A DNA stretch of 54,326 bases from an uncultured Clostridia bacterium (lineage in GTDB: Bacteria > Bacillota > DTU025 > MWDF01), in NCBI GenBank assembly GCA_964532805.1, contig CAZHKX010000002.1:1-54326 (forward strand). Direction: 5' to 3'. The position numbers and the translations under genes are program-made. The notes below the pieces were generated by a model. It had not been told where the DNA came from. It did not search any database and saw nothing but the letters and a program-made list of their open reading frames with translations. Below, one piece after another: positions 28,272 to 38,095 of this stretch (position 1 is its first letter; each line of letters begins with the position of its first letter).

Positions 28272-28391
28272 AAACAAGTAATAAACACCAGCTAAAGGCC
28301 GATATCCTTCACTTTGGAAATAGAAGGATATAATTGCCAATTAGTAGAAATATACAAGCACCTACCAAGGTACTACAGCGGAGGTGCTTTC

Positions 28392-28676
28392 ATGGACATC
28401 ACTGACGTACGAGTCAGGAAGGTTGTCACAAATTCCCGAATGAAAGCCATCGCGACCATTACATTCGATGATTGCTTCGTAGTTCGCGACATCAAGGTCA
28501 TCGATGGCCAGAACGGCCTATTCGTGGCCATGCCCTCGAGGAAATCCGCAGACGGCCAGTTCAGAGACGTAGCCCACCCTATCAGGCAGGATTTCAGGGA
28601 CGTAATCGAAAGCAAGATTATAGACGTCTTCAAGAATCTGCCGGACGAGACTCCGGAGGAGGTGGAAAGGGCTTAA
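28392..28676 (+). CDS. spoVG: Regulator SpoVG
   Basis: ATG at 28392 with a GGAGGTG RBS. The sequence MDITDVRVRKV...MKAIATITFDDCFVVRDIKVIDGQNGLFVAMPSRK is typical SpoVG. Confidence 0.9.
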   Translation: MDITDVRVRKVVTNSRMKAIATITFDDCFVVRDIKVIDGQNGLFVAMPSRKSADGQFRDVAHPIRQDFRDVIESKIIDVFKNLPDETPEEVERA

Positions 28677-28726: not shown

Positions 28727-28800
28727 TGGGGAGTCGCCAAGCGGTAAGGCACGGGACTTTGGATCCTGTACCGCAGGTTCGAATCCTGCCTCCCCAGCCA
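28727..28800 (+). tRNA. tRNA-Gln (anticodon UUG), CCA encoded
   Basis: Manual cloverleaf. Acceptor stem TGGGGAG/CTCCCCA. The D-arm TCGCCAAGCGGTAAGGCA is identical to E. coli tRNA-Gln. Anticodon stem CGGGA/TCCTG with loop CTTTGGA. T-arm GCAGG-TTCGAAT-CCTGC. Discriminator G followed by CCA. Confidence 0.9.
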
Positions 28801-28860: not shown

Positions 28861-29358
28861 TTATCTCGAAAGGATTTTCGCTACAGGCGTTACGAGCAGA
28901 AGGACGCTGACAAGCCTTAGAAGCTGCATTATCGCCACGACAGGGGCGTTGGCGTTCATCTCCGCCGCCACCGACGAAAGTTCCGTCATTCCTCCGGGGG
29001 TTGAGCTGAAGATCGCGGTCATTACATCGAAGCCGAAATAGTGGTGCAGGATGAGTGCTATCGCGAAACCAGCCGCAAGAAGCACCCCTATCATGAGGGC
29101 AGCCGGCACGAAAAGCGACTTCAGCTGCTGCATAGTGATATTCCTCAGGCCGAAACCGAGAATCGCGCCTAGGATCACCTGTACTGCAGGCTTCGATATC
29201 TCAGGCAGGCGTCCGAGGTCGACCTTGAGAAACGATGCCGCGGCAACGGCCACCATAGCTCCCATCATGGCCCCGGAAGGGATTTTGAGCCTGTGGCCTA
29301 TGTATCCTCCCGCTGTGGCTACGGCCAGCGTTTTCAGCACCGAAATCAACTGCAGCAT
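28861..29358 (-). CDS. AbrB-family (putative ammonia-monooxygenase-like) membrane transporter, half-size
   Basis: 165 aa with about 5 TM helices. GGYIGHRLKIPSGAMMGAM and STPGGMTE motifs are typical of the membrane AbrB/AidB-regulated family. Confidence 0.65.
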   Translation of the reverse strand: MLQLISVLKTLAVATAGGYIGHRLKIPSGAMMGAMVAVAAASFLKVDLGRLPEISKPAVQVILGAILGFGLRNITMQQLKSLFVPAALMIGVLLAAGFAIALILHHYFGFDVMTAIFSSTPGGMTELSSVAAEMNANAPVVAIMQLLRLVSVLLLVTPVAKILSR

Positions 29359-29513: not shown

Positions 29514-30125
29514 CTATTCGTCGAAAGCTTCCTTCACGCTCCACACCTTCCAGACGTTTCCCACTAGGTCCGGGGATGGCTTCAACGTCTTCTTCCCTGG
29601 CTTCCAACCTGAAGGCATCGCCTCGGTGCCCTTTGAGGCGCGCACGTGCTGGAAAGCCTTAACCTGCCTTATCGTCTCGCTTACGTTTCTGCCGACTGGG
29701 GGAGTAAGCACCTCGAAACCCTGGACATTCCCGTCAGGATCGATTATGAAGCGGCCACGGGTCTCGATGCCGTCTTCCTCCGAGTAGATGCCGTACAGTT
29801 TCCCTATCTCACCGCCTGAATCGGAGAGCATGGGGAAGGGGATGTCCCGCCCTATCATCTTCGACAGTTCATGGTCGTTCCACATCTTGTGGACAAAATG
29901 GCTGTCTACGCTGCATGAAAGAATCTCAACCCCGAGGCTCTGGAACTCATCGAATTTCTCGGCAACTGCCGAGACCTCGGTCGCTCAGACGAAGGTGAAG
30001 TCTCCCGGATAGAAGCAAAGGACTACCCATTTGCCTTTGTACTCAGATAGGGTGACGTTCGCAAACTTCCCTTTGATGAACGCGGTAGCTGTGAAATCAG
30101 GGGCCGGCTTTCCAACCTTGATCAT
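29514..30125 (-). CDS. prxU: Selenocysteine-containing peroxiredoxin (AhpC/Prx family, PrxU-like); the UGA at 29985-29987 is read as Sec
   Basis: Two track ORFs (29985..30281 and 29514..29885) are in the same frame and separated only by one TGA. That TGA falls on the peroxidatic Cys of FYPGDFTFV-[TGA]-ATEV. The ATG at 30125 has an AAAGGAGGAG RBS. The downstream part [11 protein letters not shown]...[10 protein letters not shown] is typical Prx. See the SECIS feature. Confidence 0.75.
29958..29987 (-). promoter_or_regulatory. UGA codon plus bacterial SECIS-like hairpin
   Basis: On the minus strand: UGA, then 11 nt (GCGACCGAGGU), then CUCGGC-AGUU-GCCGAG. This is a perfect 6-bp stem with GU in the apical loop (29973..29958). 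Confidence 0.65.
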
Positions 30126-30376: not shown

Positions 30377-30823
30377 ATGGAGGAGATCTCTTTGGACGAT
30401 ATCGAAAAGAACGGAAATCTAAACGCCGAGGAGCAGCAGGCTCAGGCAAGTCCCGAAGCAAAGGAAGCGCTTAAGGCAACCGGAGCTGCCCCGCAGGGAG
30501 CCTACCAGAAGGAGCCGGAGGCTATCATAAACAAGGTTGCAAGGCACTTCCGCCTCTCGAACCTCATATACCTGTTGGGCGTGATACAGATGGCAGGCGG
30601 CGCAGTGCTGGGAGTGGTGCTATTCTTCGTAAGCTTGGCCGGATCCAGGGGCTATGGCTACTATTATTACGGGATCCCCAGGTTCTCTGGCATATTCAGC
30701 TCATTGCTCGCAGGCCTATTCATCTTCCTCGCCTTTGTGGTGAGCGGAGCCATGACTATGGGGTTCGGCAAGCTTGTCCAAGCCGCCGAGATATATATTC
30801 AGAGGCGGTCAAGGAAGGCCTGA
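30377..30823 (+). CDS. Hypothetical membrane protein (acidic N-terminus, 3 TM helices)
   Basis: 148-aa ORF with hydrophobic helices. There is no clear SD. It is followed by a strong terminator. Confidence 0.4.
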   Translation: MEEISLDDIEKNGNLNAEEQQAQASPEAKEALKATGAAPQGAYQKEPEAIINKVARHFRLSNLIYLLGVIQMAGGAVLGVVLFFVSLAGSRGYGYYYYGIPRFSGIFSSLLAGLFIFLAFVVSGAMTMGFGKLVQAAEIYIQRRSRKA

Positions 30824-30845
30824 TATAACCGAACTGAGATGATAA

Positions 30846-30880
30846 GGAATAGCCGCCCGGCAGAGGCGGCTATTCCTTCA
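30846..30880. terminator. Bidirectional terminator hairpin
   Basis: GGAATAGCCGCC / GGCGGCTATTCC form a perfect 12-bp stem with a 7-nt loop, followed by TTCAT. Confidence 0.6.
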
Positions 30881-30899: not shown

Positions 30900-32138
30900 C
30901 TAGGACATTATGCGCTTCTCGCCTGTCAGAGCCCTGATCTCGCTTATCTCCTGCGAGACTTCCAGGGCACCTTTGTATGCGCCCTCTGCGTCGCGCACTG
31001 CGAAGTATCTGATGTAGACCATCATCCCCCGCATGTTGATCCAGAAATCCTCGTGGTCCTTGGCGCCGGACTTGAAATCGTTTAATATCTGCTCCACAAC
31101 AGCCATGCTCTTCGGCGGATGGCAGTTCTGCACAAGCCTTCCGATTATGGTCTTGTTCCTTGGGAAGATCCTCTCCTTGGAATTCGAGAAGTACCTTACC
31201 ACGTCGTTCTCGTCTATGAACGTGATATCCACGGGCATATGGTTCAGCATTAGTTCGGTCTGCTCAGGGGTCAGGAAGCCCGTCCCGAGGTTCACGGAAT
31301 GAGATATGCCGGCTGCCTCGTAACCGCCTTCTTCAGCGTCCTCGCCGATCGCCACCCTTGAAGGCTTCCACTTCGCGACAGGCTCAACTAGGCAATAGCC
31401 CAGCTCGTCGCTCTCCTTCTCTACTCTTACCCAGTCATCCTCGGTAAGGGCGTTGGTAATCATGGGGAACAGGATGTTCCTTTCTTTGAAGATCATATCT
31501 GTGACCTTCTGCGTAGCCTCGGAGGCGACTCTGATGGCCTCGGGGTTTCTTGCGATGAGGAGAGTCTTAGCCCCCTTGATGAGGGCTCTTATCTCGTCAT
31601 GCACGCCCCACATGACCTTGGGAGGAGCGGTGATGCCGGCTTTCTCCAGGAACGGGAACACGAGGTTCTCCTTCCTAAGGTAGTGCTTGTCCACATCGGC
31701 AAGCCCGTTCAAGGCCTCCAGCAGCTGGTAGCCGTTCGCCTCCGAATGGTCGGCGGAATATGCCTTGAGTGCAGGGACTAGCTTTTCGGCTATCAAGCTT
31801 TCGATGGCCTTGTTCTCGTTTTCCAGCTGGTTTAGGGGGTGCCCGGGGGTATTAAGCGCGCTCTTGGGAATGTGGATGTCTTCGATCGAAGTGCCCATGA
31901 TCGCGGCGTGTACATCGCACATCCTGGTTATCTCCTCAACCGGCATCCCCTCTGATACGAGCTTCGCCTCGATTGCGGCGATCTCTTCGGAGCTTACTCC
32001 TGCGAACAGGGCCTTGAACTCAGCGGTAACCTCTTCCTTCGACCTTCCGCGGTGCAGGTCCATGATAAGCCTCTGAAGGTGGTGCTGCCTTGCGGGGTCA
32101 AGCTTTCCTCCGGCTTCGTTGTGTATCATCTCGCTCAT
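30900..32138 (-). CDS. DUF438 / hemerythrin-like / PAS domain protein (putative O2/NO/redox sensor)
   Basis: 412 aa. N-terminus L..LI.DLH.G.S.EEV..EF (DUF438-like). Central HHE-type segments (CDVHAAIMG, VMWGVHDEIR). PAS-like C-terminus (ITFIDENDVVRYFS...R.......CHPPKS). Confidence 0.65.
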   Translation of the reverse strand: MSEMIHNEAGGKLDPARQHHLQRLIMDLHRGRSKEEVTAEFKALFAGVSSEEIAAIEAKLVSEGMPVEEITRMCDVHAAIMGTSIEDIHIPKSALNTPGHPLNQLENENKAIESLIAEKLVPALKAYSADHSEANGYQLLEALNGLADVDKHYLRKENLVFPFLEKAGITAPPKVMWGVHDEIRALIKGAKTLLIARNPEAIRVASEATQKVTDMIFKERNILFPMITNALTEDDWVRVEKESDELGYCLVEPVAKWKPSRVAIGEDAEEGGYEAAGISHSVNLGTGFLTPEQTELMLNHMPVDITFIDENDVVRYFSNSKERIFPRNKTIIGRLVQNCHPPKSMAVVEQILNDFKSGAKDHEDFWINMRGMMVYIRYFAVRDAEGAYKGALEVSQEISEIRALTGEKRIMS

Positions 32139-32176
32139 ATCTCTCTCCTCCTATGTGAATCCAATCTCGTGGAAAT

Positions 32177-32201
32177 ATATCCTACCGATATAGTAGGATA
32201 T
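32177..32201. repeat. Perfect 9-bp inverted repeat (possible operator or weak terminator)
   Basis: ATATCCTAC-7 nt-GTAGGATAT, located between the helicase stop (32248) and the DUF438 gene start (32138). Confidence 0.4.
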
Positions 32202-32247
32202 AGTTTCTTAAGAATCGGTAATATATATTACGGAGCGAGAAAATTCG

Positions 32248-35200
32248 TCATCCTATGGAAGCGGTCATAGCAATCGACGTGAAATCAGCAGGCATAGGAC
32301 GGTCAAGATGCCACCTGATACTTACCGGGCGATCCCCCTGGGCATCGACGAACCTTGCCGGGCCAAGGTATTTGTAGGGCATAGGCTTATTGAACTCGCC
32401 TGATTTTGTTTCCCTTACGAATAGCAGCACCTTACCGTTAATCCCGTCGCGCGACATGTACCTGGCGGCAGTATTGCTCTGCCTGGAAACAGTGCTTTGT
32501 GTCTGCCAGTGGAATAGGCTCGGGCTTATCGCGTAGTCCTTATACATTGTTGTCGGTGAGAAGCTCTTCTCATCTTTAAAAAGGTTAATAAGCAGGATAT
32601 CGGTGTCTAGCTCCTTAATGTGAAGCACACCTTCGCGGAAGTCAGGCTTCGATTTATCTGTGTACCTTCCTAATGCGGCCAATATCTGATCCCGCGTGTA
32701 GCTGCAGTGCAGATCGAGCGGGCATGTGTATCCGAGATCGAGTCTCTCGTCCACGAAAGTAATCCTGTCCCGGATGATTCTCAGGATCCCTGCTGCCTCA
32801 TCCTTCAATCCAGGATAATCTCCTAGCATCCCCAGGGCGCTTGCAGCATCCAGAAAACCCAAATCTGCTGGAGGGCGACCCCAGAGAGTGTAGTTAAGCA
32901 TAAGCAGCATGCGATTCTCTTCTGCTGTGAAAGAAGCCTCGTGTCTTCTATCGAGCACTGTAAGCGCAAAGTCGATTAATCTCCTCGAGTCACACTGCTG
33001 CAGACGAAAGAGGGCATTTCTCAGCTTGTCTTCGTCGTACGATGCTGAAGGCTGTGCAGGCAGAAGTCCCGCTTCACGACAGAAAGAGGAATACGTTCCC
33101 TTACTGTAGATGTCGGCAAGGCGTACGTTCGGATGGTCTGCGATGAACTCCTCAAGCGAAGGCGCCTTCCCCGCACCTTTATAGGTCCCAAGAGCCCTAA
33201 CGATATACTTCTTGTTCACGATGGCTCCCTGGATGTTGTCGAGCACGTGCTCCTGTGCGACTTTCTCCAAGCTTATGCTGCAGCCTCTCGGCAATGAGGG
33301 GAAGCCTTCCGAGACCTCCTCCTTTAGAGTGTGCCTTGTCCTCGAGAGCAAGGCGCGAAACTTGCTTTCGAAATCGTATTGAGAGTTTGCAGCACCGATA
33401 AAATCAAGCACAGTGAGCTCTGACTTCCCCTCGTATAGCCTTAGTCCCCTTCCAAGCTGCTGAAGAAATATGGTCAGGCTCTCTGTGGGCCTAAGCAGGA
33501 GTATCGTATTAACAAACGGTATATCGACTCCTTCGTTATAAAGGTCGACTGTGAATATGAATTTGATGTCACCATTTCTGAGCCTTCCTACTGTGGCCCC
33601 TCTTTCCTGTTGTGTCGACTTGCCCTCCAGCACCTTAGACATAATTCCGCTTCGGTTAAAGACGTCTGCCATGAATTCGGCATGCCTTAAGCTGGCGCAG
33701 AAGCCGAGCCCTCTAACATTTTCCAGGTCCGCGACATATTTCTCCACGGCATCTGCTATCAGCCTTGCCCTTGCTCCATCTCCTGTATAGATTCTCTCAA
33801 GCGTGCCGGCATCATACCTTCCCCTGGCAAACCTGACATCTCTCAAGTCCACGCTGTCTGCTATTCCGAAGTATTGAAATGGAACAAGAAGCTGCCTGTT
33901 GATGGCCTCCGGCAGCCGGATCTCAACTGCCATGCGCCCATCGAAGAACTCCTGGCAGATGTCCCTGCCGTCCATCCTCTCGGGAGTCGCCGTGAGGCCA
34001 AGAAGGATCTTCGGCTTGAAGTGAGCCAGTATTTGCCTGTAGCTGCCGGCAGCCGAATGATGAAACTCGTCGATGACGATGAAGTCGTAGAAATCCGGGG
34101 GGAGCGCTTCGCATAGCTGTTTCGAATTAATGCTCTGTATAGATGCGAAAAGATGATCGTAGGATGATAATTCAGCTTCCCCATAATAAAGCTCACCGAA
34201 GTTCTGGTCCAGCAGAACGTTTCTGTAGCAGCGAAGGCTTTGGTCAAGGATGTCTTTTCTGTGTGCGACGAAGAGAAAACGGCAACGAGAGCCCGGGTTC
34301 TTGGCAGTGAAGGCTTTGTAATCAAACGCGGAGATGACCGTCTTGCCGGTGCCTGTAGCAGCAACTAAGAGGTTGCTAGTCCTTCCGTGGATCACTCGTT
34401 CCGCCTCTAAGCGTTCGAGCACCTGTTTTTGAAACGGGAACGGTTGAATGACAAACAGGGGCTCATACACCATTCCGTCGCCTCTAGCCTCGGCTTTAAG
34501 GGCGGAGAGCAGCTTTCCTCTGTCAGATTCTGAGTAGCTTTGGAAGTCGGGATCGTTCCAGTATGTCTCGAAAGCGGCGTTAACCCCGGTGACGATATGT
34601 GGAAGGTCGTCGCTTGCTGCCTTCATGTTCCACTCGAGGCCGGATCCAAGGGCGGGGCCGCTAATGTTGGATGAGCCTATGTAAGCAGTGTCCATGCCGC
34701 TGGACCTGTGGAAGATGTAGGCTTTGGCATGAAGTCTGGTGGACCTTGTGTCGTAGTTCACCTTGAGCTGGGTATTACCGATTTTCATGAGCTCATCTAT
34801 GCACTTTATCTCGGTGGCGCCCATATAGCAGGTTGTTATTACACGTATCTTCCCCCGCTCTGAAAGGCGCCTCAGCTCGTCGATTATTAGCCTTAAGCCG
34901 CTCCAGCGAATGAACGAGACGAGTAAGTCCACGGAATCTGACGTAGCTATCTCCTTGCGCAGCTGACTTGCAAGAGAAGGCTCGCTTCCGGACCCCGTGA
35001 AGAGTGCAGAGACGGAGAGAGGCGTATCGGGTCTGTGGACCTTGCCGTCTGGAAGGGCGTAACGGCGTACGGCCCTGTTGAGCACAGCAAGGAGCTTCTC
35101 CATCTTATCGTCTATGAGCATGTCTAAGAGGCCTTCGTCGCCGGAGGCCGCAGACAGGCGACTGATTATGTCGTTGCAGATTGCAAGCTGCGCCTTCTCC

Positions 35201-35421
35201 GCGTCTTTGAAAGGGGCCTTCTCCCCGATGATTATGAGGCCTTTTCTGATGGAATTGCGCATATACTGCGACAAGACATCTGCCGAGGAGGGTGCGGAGA
35301 TCGCCTCTCTGACAATTTCGAACTCGCTGGCGTCGACTCTACTGAGGGACTCCTCAAGTGCCCTTGTTATCATCTCGTCATATATGCCTTCACAAATGGC
35401 CGGAACTTGGCAGCGATCCAT
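32248..35421 (-). CDS. Fusion protein: PLD-family (single HKD) nuclease + SF2 (ResIII/DEAH-type) helicase + DUF3427-like C-terminal domain
   Basis: 1057 aa with a GGGAGTG RBS. HKD motif HAKAYIF-x13-GSSNIS (aa 231-254). Walker A VAATGTGKT (aa 353-361). DEFHH (aa 451-455), LGLTATP, and helicase-C motif QQLGRGLR. The C-terminal ~250 aa carry FHWQTQS, LLFVRE and PYKYLG motifs. Confidence 0.85.
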   Translation of the reverse strand: MDRCQVPAICEGIYDEMITRALEESLSRVDASEFEIVREAISAPSSADVLSQYMRNSIRKGLIIIGEKAPFKDAEKAQLAICNDIISRLSAASGDEGLLDMLIDDKMEKLLAVLNRAVRRYALPDGKVHRPDTPLSVSALFTGSGSEPSLASQLRKEIATSDSVDLLVSFIRWSGLRLIIDELRRLSERGKIRVITTCYMGATEIKCIDELMKIGNTQLKVNYDTRSTRLHAKAYIFHRSSGMDTAYIGSSNISGPALGSGLEWNMKAASDDLPHIVTGVNAAFETYWNDPDFQSYSESDRGKLLSALKAEARGDGMVYEPLFVIQPFPFQKQVLERLEAERVIHGRTSNLLVAATGTGKTVISAFDYKAFTAKNPGSRCRFLFVAHRKDILDQSLRCYRNVLLDQNFGELYYGEAELSSYDHLFASIQSINSKQLCEALPPDFYDFIVIDEFHHSAAGSYRQILAHFKPKILLGLTATPERMDGRDICQEFFDGRMAVEIRLPEAINRQLLVPFQYFGIADSVDLRDVRFARGRYDAGTLERIYTGDGARARLIADAVEKYVADLENVRGLGFCASLRHAEFMADVFNRSGIMSKVLEGKSTQQERGATVGRLRNGDIKFIFTVDLYNEGVDIPFVNTILLLRPTESLTIFLQQLGRGLRLYEGKSELTVLDFIGAANSQYDFESKFRALLSRTRHTLKEEVSEGFPSLPRGCSISLEKVAQEHVLDNIQGAIVNKKYIVRALGTYKGAGKAPSLEEFIADHPNVRLADIYSKGTYSSFCREAGLLPAQPSASYDEDKLRNALFRLQQCDSRRLIDFALTVLDRRHEASFTAEENRMLLMLNYTLWGRPPADLGFLDAASALGMLGDYPGLKDEAAGILRIIRDRITFVDERLDLGYTCPLDLHCSYTRDQILAALGRYTDKSKPDFREGVLHIKELDTDILLINLFKDEKSFSPTTMYKDYAISPSLFHWQTQSTVSRQSNTAARYMSRDGINGKVLLFVRETKSGEFNKPMPYKYLGPARFVDAQGDRPVSIRWHLDRPMPADFTSIAMTASIG

Positions 35422-35520
35422 GGAATCACTCCCGGAAAAGAATGGGCAGCACCATTATAACACCGTCAAGCAGGAATTATCATGTTAGGATTCTAGTCGC
35501 AGGATATCGCCGCATGGTGT

Positions 35521-35880
35521 CTACTCAGAATCCGCCTTGCTCCCCGAAAGTGAGCGCGCGGCTGCGAGCGACCACAGCATGGAAGACTTCGTCTCGTTCG
35601 CCGCCGCAAGCCCGATGAAGCGCAGGAATGCCAAGAAAAGCGACAGGCTCCGAAAAAGCGCAAGCACAGCGTAGGAGATGATAAAGCAGATAATCGAATA
35701 GGCGACGGAGAATGGCACCAGCGGCAACGCCCAAGGAGATATTCTTCCGTAACCCTTCTCTGCCTCGGGATCTTTTTCCTCTGCCTTCTCGGGTTTTGAG
35801 GCGGACAGGAGACCGATAAGGTCAAAGGCGATGTTCATCGCGAAGAATGCGACAACAAGGTTTAGAGAGTACCTGCTCAT
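35521..35880 (-). CDS. Small 3-TM membrane protein, immediately upstream of and co-oriented with the PLD-helicase gene
   Basis: 119 aa with an AAAGGAGG RBS 5 nt upstream. Hydrophobic helices are separated by a charged KPEKAEEKDPEAEK loop. Confidence 0.45.
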   Translation of the reverse strand: MSRYSLNLVVAFFAMNIAFDLIGLLSASKPEKAEEKDPEAEKGYGRISPWALPLVPFSVAYSIICFIISYAVLALFRSLSLFLAFLRFIGLAAANETKSSMLWSLAAARSLSGSKADSE

Positions 35881-36011: not shown

Positions 36012-36172
36012 TACAGCATAAGTGAACATTTGTCAAGCAAAAACGCAGTTCAGGGCACTATTAATAATGATTAACCCCTGTCGAGGGGGATGTTGAAAAC
36101 TATATTCGGCAAGTGGAAAATTATTCGCTTGTATGCAATAATTATTGTATATATCGTCTCGCGAGGTGCGGA

Positions 36173-37147
36173 ATGGACAGAGAAGGCTTCCTGAAATATC
36201 TCAAGGGCAAAGGGCTTGATGATGAAGCGGCATCAAGGCAGATGTCCATAGCGGACCATCTGGATACTATGCTCTCCTCAAGGAACGGTCCTCCTGGAAC
36301 AGGATGCGGAAGGAAGGCGGCATCAAGCCTCATCGAGTCGCTTCTTGAATCCGGGCAGGATTCATATGAGAACATGCTTGCCATACTTAGGTACGGCTAT
36401 TTCACGAAGAACGATGAGATCTATAAGACCGCCTTCATGTACCTTGACGGCGCGGAGGCGCTGGACGGCATGTACTATAAGCTTGAGGAAGTGGCAGGAT
36501 CCGAGGAGCGGGACCGCATATTCGGCATGATAGGGCCGATAACGCTGGGCACATCATTCAAGGACAAGGCAGCCGCGACAAGGACTGTCGTTGCCGAGGT
36601 GAAGTCATCGCTGAGCCCTCAGCAAAGGAAGAAACTGTATAACGCAAGCTTCAGGCATCTGGATGATTCCCATTACCTCCCCGACAGGCAAGCTTATGAG
36701 AAGATAGGGGACATCGACGCCTACATAGAGGCGAAGAGGCTGGATTTCGTAAAGGAGCTCGAAGGCCATATGGCCGAGGGCAAGCTTTTCTTCGGGCAGG
36801 AGGTCACCCCAGAGGTAATCGAGCACGTCAAGTCCGACCCCGAGATCGCCTTCGGCAGGAGGGCGGGAAGCGACCTGTTCGTGACTAAGATCCCCTTCAG
36901 GACAAAGCAGTGGCTCTCCGAGAAGGACCCTAAGAAGAAGAGGTATCTCTACTGCCATTGCCCGTGGGCCAGGGAATCCATCCTATCGGATTTGGGCCCG
37001 GTGGACCCGGAGTTCTGCAACTGCAGCGCAGGCTTCCATAAGAAATCATGGGAGGTCATTTTCGGAAGGAAGCTTGATTGCGAGGTCTTAGAATCAGTCC
37101 TTGCTGGAGATGACAGGTGCAGGTTCAGGATAAGCCTGCCGATATAG
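36173..37147 (+). CDS. Hypothetical protein with a Cys-rich C-terminal module
   Basis: Start taken at the ATG at 36173 (GAGGTG upstream). The C-terminus carries CHCPW-x21-CNCSAGF-x17-C-x14-CRF, suggesting a metal or cluster site. Confidence 0.45.
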   Translation: MDREGFLKYLKGKGLDDEAASRQMSIADHLDTMLSSRNGPPGTGCGRKAASSLIESLLESGQDSYENMLAILRYGYFTKNDEIYKTAFMYLDGAEALDGMYYKLEEVAGSEERDRIFGMIGPITLGTSFKDKAAATRTVVAEVKSSLSPQQRKKLYNASFRHLDDSHYLPDRQAYEKIGDIDAYIEAKRLDFVKELEGHMAEGKLFFGQEVTPEVIEHVKSDPEIAFGRRAGSDLFVTKIPFRTKQWLSEKDPKKKRYLYCHCPWARESILSDLGPVDPEFCNCSAGFHKKSWEVIFGRKLDCEVLESVLAGDDRCRFRISLPI

Positions 37148-37244: not shown

Positions 37245-37952
37245 TCAGACAGGAATCGAGGTGTCGTCTATCATGCCGTCCTCGTAAATCACCTTGACGC
37301 TTTCGATGAAAACGCCGAAGGTGCCATCATATGGGTAGAAGAGCTGGGATTCAAGGCAGGGGGCGAACCATTGCGAGGCATATTCCTCAAGTTCCAGCTC
37401 CCCGACCAATGTGCCGTTAACCTTCATGGTCACGCTGTCGCCCTTCTTCTTAAGCTCATATACGTTCCTGCCGTCTCTTATTAGGCCAGGCATGGGTTCC
37501 TCGACGGGCATGATCATGAACAACCCTGTCGCCTCATAGTAGGCATGGGCTTCGCCCTCAAGCCCGACTTCGATGCCCTCCAGGCAGAGGAAGCTTTCTG
37601 CCGAGGAGAGGAGCGGTCCGTCGGCCATGTCCAGCCCGAAGAAGGCCTCATGATCCTCGTCTGCGTAAACCCAGAAGCGCACTATGTAGGTGAAATCCCC
37701 GCTGAACCTGAAGGGGCATGTGACGGCCTTCCCTCTCATGGAAAGCCCCTTATCCGCGAAAGAGTAACTTCCGGTGACGGCAGGCGAGGCAGAGGAGACT
37801 GATAAGAACCAGTCCTCCATATACCAGGCCCCCTCGTCATTCTCCAGGTCTCCCTCCTCCCTGAAGCTGAAGAAATATGTAGTAGTGCATCCGGAAAGAA
37901 GAAGTGCCGCGAGGATGGATACTACCGCCAGCGCCGCAACCCTCCTGTTCAT
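37245..37952 (-). CDS. Hypothetical lipoprotein
   Basis: ATG at 37952 (GGGGGTG RBS 6 nt upstream). Signal peptide with lipobox LLLSGC. The mature part is beta-rich. Confidence 0.6.
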   Translation of the reverse strand: MNRRVAALAVVSILAALLLSGCTTTYFFSFREEGDLENDEGAWYMEDWFLSVSSASPAVTGSYSFADKGLSMRGKAVTCPFRFSGDFTYIVRFWVYADEDHEAFFGLDMADGPLLSSAESFLCLEGIEVGLEGEAHAYYEATGLFMIMPVEEPMPGLIRDGRNVYELKKKGDSVTMKVNGTLVGELELEEYASQWFAPCLESQLFYPYDGTFGVFIESVKVIYEDGMIDDTSIPV

Positions 37953-38095
37953 CAAAAACACCCCCAGATATTTCTGATCTGTAGCGGTGATGATATTCAA
38001 CGCCCCGTAACTTATTTCCTTTATTGAATGATTTTATCTGGCGAAAGAGCCGGAAATACAGCTAAAAGCGCCTAAGGAAAACGGACGCGCCTCCG

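Follow-up and report, generated by a model that had tools for sequence, protein, structure and literature searches.

What does a single protein of 1057 amino acids (aa) that joins a phospholipase D (PLD) nuclease, a superfamily 2 (SF2) helicase core and a DUF3427-like domain do in an uncultured Clostridia bacterium? Its gene lies at positions 32248..35421 (-) of contig CAZHKX010000002.1 (assembly GCA_964532805.1), and the 54,326 nucleotides of this contig, taken whole, are the window analysed here. An original prediction had presented the gene as a candidate for an uncharacterised restriction or defence module. Our analysis indicates that the protein is very probably a SauUSI-family type IV restriction endonuclease, i.e., one polypeptide, without a methyltransferase, that depends on both ATP and DNA modification. 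SauUSI is the ATP-dependent type IV endonuclease of Staphylococcus aureus, whose activity requires 5-methylcytosine (5mC) or 5-hydroxymethylcytosine (5hmC) (Xu 2011, PMC3141236; Tumuluri 2021, PMC7913695). The gene is a further copy of this already characterised and very common enzyme family, an ordinary defence gene and no new system. Its parts are as follows:

32248..35421 (-): restriction gene, 1057 aa, ATG start, intact open reading frame (ORF), very probably a SauUSI-family type IV modification-dependent restriction endonuclease
35047..35421 (-): N-terminal helical domain, aa 1-125, without a counterpart in SauUSI except for its last helix
34498..35046 (-): PLD/HKD nuclease domain, aa ~126-308, with catalytic H231, K233, N252 and E263
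33367..34449 (-): SF2 DExH helicase-like ATPase (translocase) core, aa ~325-685
32755..33366 (-): alpha-helical coupler, aa ~686-889, joining ATPase and recognition domain
32251..32754 (-): SRA-like target recognition domain (DUF3427 core), aa 890-1057

The nuclease domain carries the motifs HAKAYIF (231-237) and GSSNIS (249-254), the ATPase core VAATGTGKT (353-361), DEFHH (451-455), LGLTATP (474-480) and QQLGRGLR (654-661), and the C-terminal part FHWQTQS (970-976), LLFVRE (999-1004) and PYKYLG (1015-1020). All of these stand where they had originally been placed; the spacer of the HKD motif, counted at first as 13 residues, is actually 11 residues long (238-248). HMMER searches judged against the curated Pfam cut-offs bore out each of the four domain assignments made beforehand from motifs: PLDc_2 (34.6 bits vs a cut-off of 27, aa 162-288), ResIII (126.5 vs 22.5, aa 325-482), Helicase_C (48.2 vs 23.5, aa 564-661) and DUF3427 (65.4 vs 27.7, aa 899-1046, profile positions 124-274 of 280). 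RE_NgoFVII also matched the PLD part (25.6 bits, aa 154-258) and nothing beyond it. Residues 1-150 gave no Pfam match, in keeping with the N-terminus of ~130 aa that the original prediction had left unassigned. An AlphaFold2 (AF2) model of the full-length chain, built with 78 homologues, reached a mean predicted local distance difference test score (pLDDT) of 72.6 and a predicted TM-score (pTM) of 0.43, with good PLD, RecA1, coupler and C-terminal domains. The PLD nuclease domain was modelled at pLDDT 85-92. In the coupler (aa 684-886) the model has nothing but helices, mostly at pLDDT 73-93 from residue ~730 on.

The closest family model was found in PADLOC-DB, where PDLC03659 (mREase_IV, 'Type IV methyl-directed restriction enzyme') matched at 820 bits (E 5.9e-247) and nearly end to end, aligning aa 124-1049 with positions 10-937 of its 945. 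The SauUSI-specific PADLOC model, PDLC03658, scored 271 bits on the same protein. SauUSI itself (953 aa, from the public S. aureus contig L012) scored 2223 bits with PDLC03658 and 269 bits with PDLC03659, a mirrored pattern which indicates that the two are sister models of one family. The cluster names for the 945-aa short forms were uninformative as to the origin of PDLC03659. A sequence search of the PDB likewise placed SauUSI (7CLG) first, at E 1.6e-81 over aa 152-780, ahead of a type I R subunit at 1.6e-25; the alignment runs into the SauUSI coupler, to residue 780 in the query and 664 in SauUSI. Foldseek with the full-length model returned 7CLG at E 3.8e-34 over 975 columns, with RadD second at 1.8e-11.

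The catalytic machinery agrees in detail. H231, K233, N252 and E263 align with SauUSI H119, K121, N139 and E150, the conserved catalytic residues that were picked for alanine mutagenesis (Xu 2011, PMC3141236), and all four are invariant in 78/78 aligned homologues. The same holds for the ATPase residues K360 (Walker A, GTGKT), D451/E452 of the invariant DEFHH, TATP 477-480 and QQLGRGLR, so that both the HKD and the Walker motifs, on whose conservation the original prediction had staked its reading, are kept without exception in these sequences. Compared with the orthologue in a related uncultured Clostridia genome (L001; 84% protein identity), substitutions fall 146/77/531 over the three codon positions, and this third-position bias indicates purifying selection. 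The exact sequence of the 1057-aa protein was not found in the contig collection.

With domain boundaries taken from PMC7913695, SauUSI consists of a PLD nuclease (1-191), a linker, an SF2 DExH ATPase, a coupler (618-805) and an SRA-fold recognition domain (806-953) that corresponds to DUF3427 (PMC3141236; PMC7913695). The characterised enzyme (S. aureus USA300 SAUSA300_2431; PDB 7CLG) acts on S-5mC-N-G-S and 5hmC sites. The window protein has the same domain order of PLD/HKD nuclease, SF2 DExH ATPase, helical coupler and SRA-like DUF3427 domain, and it keeps the catalytic H/K/N/E, all ATPase motifs and the Asp and Trp of the recognition pocket. It is about 100 aa longer, owing to an extra N-terminal helical domain of ~110-125 aa. 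No cognate methyltransferase accompanies either enzyme: among the larger ORFs scanned across the 54-kb window we found no DNA methyltransferase, as the original prediction had said of the gene's vicinity, and the methyltransferase-fold matches in the window are an MTS/PrmA-type small methyltransferase, an rRNA adenine dimethylase and a tetrapyrrole-methylase/MazG fusion.

Several of the functional proposals made at the outset are matched by experiments on the homologue. A stand-alone, modification-dependent, type IV-like enzyme, the use of DUF3427 for target recognition, and dimerisation implied by one HKD motif per chain all agree with what was shown for SauUSI (PMC3141236; PMC7913695), and the PADLOC search that had been suggested returned the type IV model at 820 bits. 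The claims of novelty did not hold. The architecture, believed to be missing from the named defence systems, has had a name and a characterised member since 2011 and now also a crystal structure (7CLG), and a PADLOC type IV model matches the window protein at E 5.9e-247; DUF3427, described as having no known function, is the recognition domain of SauUSI.

What the enzyme might recognise depends on its C-terminal module. The stand-alone AF2 model of aa 890-1057 reached pLDDT 76.6 and pTM 0.77. The Foldseek search proposed earlier for this module placed SauUSI 7CLG at rank 1 (query TM-score, TMq, 0.60), and ranks 3-17 were all SRA-fold readers of 5mC or 5hmC (AbaSI, SUVH6, MspJI, UHRF1, TagI and KRYPTONITE), followed by a sharp break. 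The pocket for a flipped base is predicted to be formed by H934, L944, I945, D962 and W972. D962 aligns with SauUSI D858 and W972 with W868, and both are invariant in 78/78 homologues; in SauUSI, D858 is proposed to hydrogen-bond the flipped cytosine and W868 to stack on the flipped base. L944/I945 align with SauUSI F841/I842, and this position, while not invariant, is hydrophobic throughout the 78 homologues. A pocket survey by regular expression over 150 distant representatives was too loose to trust, and only the counts from the 78 aligned sequences are used here.

Some observations weigh against this assignment, or against extending the specificity of SauUSI to the window protein. Overall identity to SauUSI is only 28% and falls to ~17% for the recognition domains in the structural alignment, so the specificity of SauUSI is not confidently transferable; over the recognition domain, the HMMER match to SauUSI is insignificant by itself. 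Tyr-831 of SauUSI, the proposed methyl-group contact, is replaced by His934 in the window protein, and position 934 holds Tyr in 66 of the 78 aligned close homologues, with Trp in 7, His in 4 and Phe in 1. The full-length model is mediocre, with a poor RecA2 (aa ~500-700). Our literature search found no biochemically characterised member of the long ~1040-aa subfamily to which the protein belongs. Finally, a NUDIX gene lies directly upstream of sauUSI in S. aureus and none adjoins the window gene, whose neighbours are a 119-aa membrane-protein gene and a DUF438-hemerythrin-PAS gene.

The exchange at position 934 and the ~17% identity are also what might be expected if the same family and machinery served another target, such as glucosyl-hydroxymethylcytosine, N4-methylcytosine, N6-methyladenine (6mA) or another hypermodified base, with the N-terminal domain adding regulatory or sensing input. 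Such a reading gains from the variation of this pocket position in more distant representatives (by the loose regular expression), from a conserved N-terminal domain that has no known relative, and from members of similar length that align only from about residue 125, whose N-termini are perhaps swappable. However, neither D962, which would hydrogen-bond cytosine specifically, nor the stacking W972 varies, all structural neighbours of the recognition domain are readers of 5mC or 5hmC, His occurs in only 4/78 close homologues, and one change in the pocket need not alter specificity. We regard this version as quite unlikely; a different modification or an added regulatory layer, taken together, is the one live alternative, though an improbable one. 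Much less probable still is that the gene encodes a housekeeping helicase-nuclease for DNA repair or recombination, similar to RadD. Some homologues do bear the name 'putative DNA repair helicase RadD', there is a resemblance to RadD and XPB in the ATPase core, and in all four genomes of its clade the gene has a stable place between housekeeping genes. But the NCBIfam RadD model NF053632 scores 103.6 bits vs a cut-off of 720 and matches the ATPase core only, which excludes RadD as the family assignment, and both the PLD nuclease and the SRA-like domain are missing from RadD. The neighbourhoods of homologues are not fixed and are frequently defence-related or mobile, GC content at third codon positions (GC3) is 0.61 vs 0.74-0.79 in core genes, which points to a horizontal origin, and a nonsense-inactivated allele circulates in a gut lineage.

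It is also very hard to reconcile the protein with the restriction subunit of an ATP-dependent system of the classical type I or III or the CglI/NgoAVII-like kind, in which unmodified DNA is cut and the methyltransferase is encoded elsewhere. Such a role is suggested by the names of the matching Pfam families ('ResIII' and 'RE_NgoFVII') and by R-subunit models of types I and III, which match weakly, and one homologue (P0005) adjoins two DNA methyltransferase genes. Yet the EcoAI-type R model reaches 117 bits vs a cut-off of 550 and hsdR 21 vs 284 (NCBIfam), PADLOC REase_I and REase_III give at most 74 bits where the type IV model gives 820, the scan of the window turned up neither Mod nor HsdM/S genes, and the protein has its own SRA-like reader of modified bases, which those systems lack. 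A SauUSI-family type IV enzyme, presumably specific for 5mC or 5hmC, accounts for the protein far better.

Other systems combine some of these parts in other ways. The DUF3427-PD-(D/E)XK fusions McaZI, BwiMMI, EfaL9I and YenY4I share the modified-cytosine-binding DUF3427 domain (Lutz et al. 2019, PMC6765204), restrict the 5hmC phage T4gt and occur in defence islands (PMC6765204); in contrast to the window protein, they have a PD-(D/E)XK instead of a PLD nuclease, no helicase or ATPase, and the opposite domain order. NgoAVII and CglI also pair a PLD-family nuclease with an SF2 translocase in ATP-dependent restriction, but they have two subunits, a B3-like DNA-binding domain and a cognate methyltransferase, and they cut unmodified sites; their domain arrangement has also been noted to differ (Tumuluri 2021, PMC7913695). 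For the 1057-aa protein, a single polypeptide, no B3 domain or methyltransferase was found, and only the PLD part of RE_NgoFVII matches. Models of further PLD or helicase defence proteins from Mokosh, PADLOC and Zorya gave no significant full-length match (MkoB 17 bits, PLD_Helicase 14.6, ZacB 19.7), NF042964 (NCBIfam phospholipD_antiphage) scored 20.9 bits vs a cut-off of 1100, and DrmC of DISARM was not among the PADLOC matches. The precedents first cited for the fusion, CglI/NgoAVII, DISARM DrmC and Mokosh, are therefore far more remote than SauUSI, with MkoB and PLD_Helicase at ~15-17 bits and DrmC without a match.

By homology to SauUSI (Tumuluri 2021, PMC7913695; Shaw et al. 2025, bioRxiv 10.1101/2025.10.16.682607), the enzyme might work as follows. 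Two chains would dimerise through their PLD domains, their two HxK motifs (H231/K233) together building the nuclease site; we infer the dimer from the single HKD motif per chain and the SauUSI crystal structure. The SRA-like domain would flip a modified cytosine, likeliest 5mC or 5hmC, into the pocket of D962, W972, L944/I945 and H934, and this recognition would turn on the SF2 DExH ATPase through the helical coupler. One or both motors would then translocate along double-stranded DNA, extruding a loop and carrying the nuclease with them, and cleavage, close to modified sites or in the stretch between them, would be set off at a distal one, at preferred sequences or at DNA ends. Repeated cycles would shred the DNA, whereas host DNA, lacking the recognised modification, would be spared. 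The ATP-driven translocation of the window enzyme, the modification that it reads and the sequence context of that modification are likewise proposed by analogy. ATP-dependent cleavage of DNA with 5mC or 5hmC and restriction of methylated plasmids and phage are known for SauUSI only, and the window protein would be expected to share them.

If so, a SauUSI-type enzyme in this uncultured gut or environmental Clostridia lineage predicts that DNA prepared in dcm+ Escherichia coli would be restricted, which matters for transforming the organism or its relatives, and that the host genome is free of the corresponding cytosine methylation. Database entries named 'DUF3427 domain-containing protein', 'DEAD/DEAH box helicase' or 'RadD' that have the PLD-helicase-DUF3427 layout should be renamed SauUSI-family type IV restriction enzymes. 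Scientifically, little is new here. The remaining question is the N-terminal helical domain of the dominant ~1040-aa subfamily, because all biochemistry so far comes from the shorter SauUSI.

The family is very large. A word-indexed search gave at least 8000 clusters at E<1e-30, and an exhaustive search of representatives at 50% identity gave 3686 at E<=1e-30, with more than 150 below 1e-178. The best 120 clusters are typically 1038-1075 aa long, with 47-51% identity and 98-99% query coverage. They belong to a long ~1040-aa PLD-helicase-DUF3427 subfamily (PDLC03659, mREase_IV), with entries labelled 'DUF3427 domain-containing protein' or 'DEAD/DEAH box helicase', that shares the N-terminal domain and has the window gene as a member; nothing substantive sets the latter apart, apart from His instead of Tyr at position 934 in its clade and the missing NUDIX neighbour. 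Clusters of the long subfamily number in the thousands and span Bacillota, Actinomycetota, Bacteroidota, Pseudomonadota and Spirochaetota. Full-length members are also carried on megaplasmids or chromids (Peptoclostridium, Hymenobacter, Pseudoalteromonas and Arthrobacter) and on three 'Bacteriophage sp.' contigs from human faecal samples.

The neighbourhoods of homologues from nine other lineages all differ and are frequently defence-related or mobile, with no fixed housekeeping context, as one would expect of a defence gene but not of a housekeeping helicase. This was the outcome that the original prediction had looked for. Genes found beside homologues include:

DUF2130, AAA_11/12-DUF2726 helicase and AAA_14-DUF4143 genes, with variable flanks
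two DNA methyltransferases and a toxin-antitoxin-like gene (P0005)
IS21 and Y1 transposases
separate HNH and GIY-YIG genes and a PLD-helicase-HNH_repeat gene
HEPN and an integrase
HIRAN and type I fragments
an AbiU/AIPR protein (Nocardioides)

In four unrelated lineages a gene for a NUDIX/MutT-like pyrophosphohydrolase abuts the SauUSI-like gene, downstream in three of them and upstream in S. aureus. The NUDIX genes were located at:

L013, 10140-10526
L015, 10137-10505
L019, 5287-5679
L021, 2634-3026

Linkage of NUDIX and SauUSI-like genes has been described in at least 60 genomes (Xu 2011, PMC3141236), and deletion of the NUDIX gene had no effect on restriction (Monk 2012). The linkage is frequent in the SauUSI family and does not define it.

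The N-terminal domain is the part in which the long forms depart from SauUSI, which keeps, according to the alignment, the equivalent of its last helix only. AF2 predicted helices at aa 13-27, 43-68, 71-93, 96-101 and 108-119, with pLDDT 55-88. A family motif, G-[IL]-Y-E-Q-V-I-N, stands near the N-terminus and reads GIYDEMIT in the window protein, and G12, Y14, L50, N83 and L110 vary hardly or not at all among homologues, one of them actinobacterial. A 19-sequence profile of the domain found chance-level matches only among PDB sequences (E >= 0.35), and in a set of 5.8 billion proteins the N-terminal profile returned only short proteins and no other architecture. By profile search, the domain occurs only at the start of SauUSI-like family proteins or in their fragments. 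One apparent stand-alone copy was examined and rejected: an in-frame TAA splits the family gene in question, a pseudogene, and the short protein is its front half.

This split gene (L019 2162-5287, also L018 and L020) has TAA in place of a conserved Ser codon, equivalent to Ser169, and reads DMLV*FVKWSGL where the consensus is DMLVSFIKWSGL. The allele was seen in 31 blocks of the collection, in a gut-metagenome lineage. A comparable nonsense allele is sauUSI of S. aureus RN4220. The circulation of an inactivated allele in the gut lineage indicates that loss of the gene is tolerated.

Some members of ~1040-1090 aa align only from residue ~125-131 (P0157, P0168, P0217, P0222, P0231 and P0244, for example) and appear, from their alignments, to carry a different N-terminal domain of ~100-130 aa. 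Partial alignment in proteins of normal length suggests that the N-terminus may be an exchangeable module. As for its role, regulation or additional dimer contacts would be a guess. It is conceivable, though we think it unlikely, that the N-terminal domain of the long forms gates the nuclease or senses a phage or host signal and that the His934 pocket reads a modification other than 5mC or 5hmC; if true, the most abundant branch of the family would have an undescribed regulatory layer or specificity.

The genomic setting of the window gene bears on how it was acquired. In Firmicutes, spoVG and glmU are canonically adjacent, as in the gene order of Bacillus subtilis. In the window, a 9.4-kb segment between tRNA-Gln and glmU breaks this adjacency:

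28314-28676: spoVG
28727-28800: tRNA-Gln
30900-32138 (-): DUF438 + hemerythrin + PAS_10 gene, directly downstream of the restriction gene
35454..35483 (-): promoter-like site of the restriction gene, ATGATA-18-TATAAT with an upstream TG (consensus scan)
35521..35880 (-): 119-aa membrane-protein gene, 99 nucleotides upstream of the restriction gene on the same strand
from 38206 onward: glmU-prs-pth-mfd

The original prediction had called this segment a variable insert. It does interrupt the spoVG-glmU junction, but its content is stable within the clade: L001, an uncultured Clostridia metagenome-assembled genome with ~82% nucleotide identity to the window, and two further genomes (L022 and L023) carry the same segment in the same gene order, with a restriction-gene orthologue 84% identical in protein. 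The sole indel in the collinear 21-kb stretch is a 2.2-kb gene for an S41-family peptidase (480-498 aa), present in L001 (14572-16775) and L022 and missing from the window (30821-30851) and L023.

A second claim concerned base composition. The values counted by hand over single 60-nucleotide lines are all correct, but the heterogeneity read from them is sampling noise, since the 60-nucleotide GC scatter of the restriction gene (standard deviation 0.061) is the same as that of mfd (0.057). Mosaicism of the gene on this ground was thus ruled out. The real signal is a lower mean: GC is 0.522 in the restriction gene vs 0.59-0.60 in core genes, and 0.529 over the whole 28.8-38.2 kb segment vs 0.58-0.59 in its flanks. 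An old horizontal acquisition would fit the low GC of both gene and segment.

The restriction gene seems to be driven from an extended -10 promoter of its own. The element (TGTTATAAT, 35462-35454) belongs to the promoter-like site listed above, and its TGnTATAAT block is kept in the L001 spacer, which has otherwise diverged. On the other side of the gene, the 109-nucleotide spacer between its stop and the start of the DUF438-hemerythrin-PAS gene contains a perfect 10-bp inverted repeat, TATATCCTAC ... GTAGGATATA, at 32176-32202, which could be an operator or a weak terminator.

Neither neighbour qualified as a partner. The 119-aa hydrophobic ORF had been reported 99 nucleotides upstream on the same strand as a protein with three transmembrane segments; its position was confirmed, and hydropathy suggests 2-3 segments. 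The gene is real: L001 and L023 have an orthologue of the same length, the L001 copy is 61% identical with changes of 36/21/64 by codon position, and the gene has a strong ribosome-binding site (GAAAGGAGG) and its own promoter, TTGACA-17-TATATT, at 36036-36008. Its product matched nothing in Pfam, PADLOC or NCBIfam. The gene was not found beside restriction-gene homologues in the nine other lineages, so the co-occurrence that had been envisaged fell away and we do not count it as part of the system. Being confined to the immediate clade, driven by its own promoter and absent from other contexts, it is probably not a component of restriction. The DUF438-hemerythrin-PAS_10 gene has a putative O2-, NO- or iron-sensing architecture; it adjoins the restriction gene in all four related genomes and in no other homologue context, and it was ruled out as a partner on that account.

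The other ORFs of the segment include two that match only part of a family. The 123-aa ORF at 29514-29885 (-) aligns with a peroxiredoxin in its C-terminal part alone (AhpC-TSA positions 81-122 of 124, plus 1-cysPrx_C), and the peroxiredoxin gene of L022 is likewise called in two pieces, of 82 aa and 123 aa; a disruption or frameshift of this gene, common to the clade, is probable. For the 165-aa ORF at 28861-29358 (-), the match to the AbrB-duplication membrane-protein profile is confined to the second half of that profile (157-313 of 314); this half-size form is conserved in L022. Between the membrane-protein gene and glmU lie ORFs of 344 aa (36113-37147, +) and 251 aa (37245-38000, -), whose sole family match is a sub-threshold DUF6144 at the C-terminus of the 344-aa ORF; their counterparts in L001 and L023 measure 324 and 235 aa.

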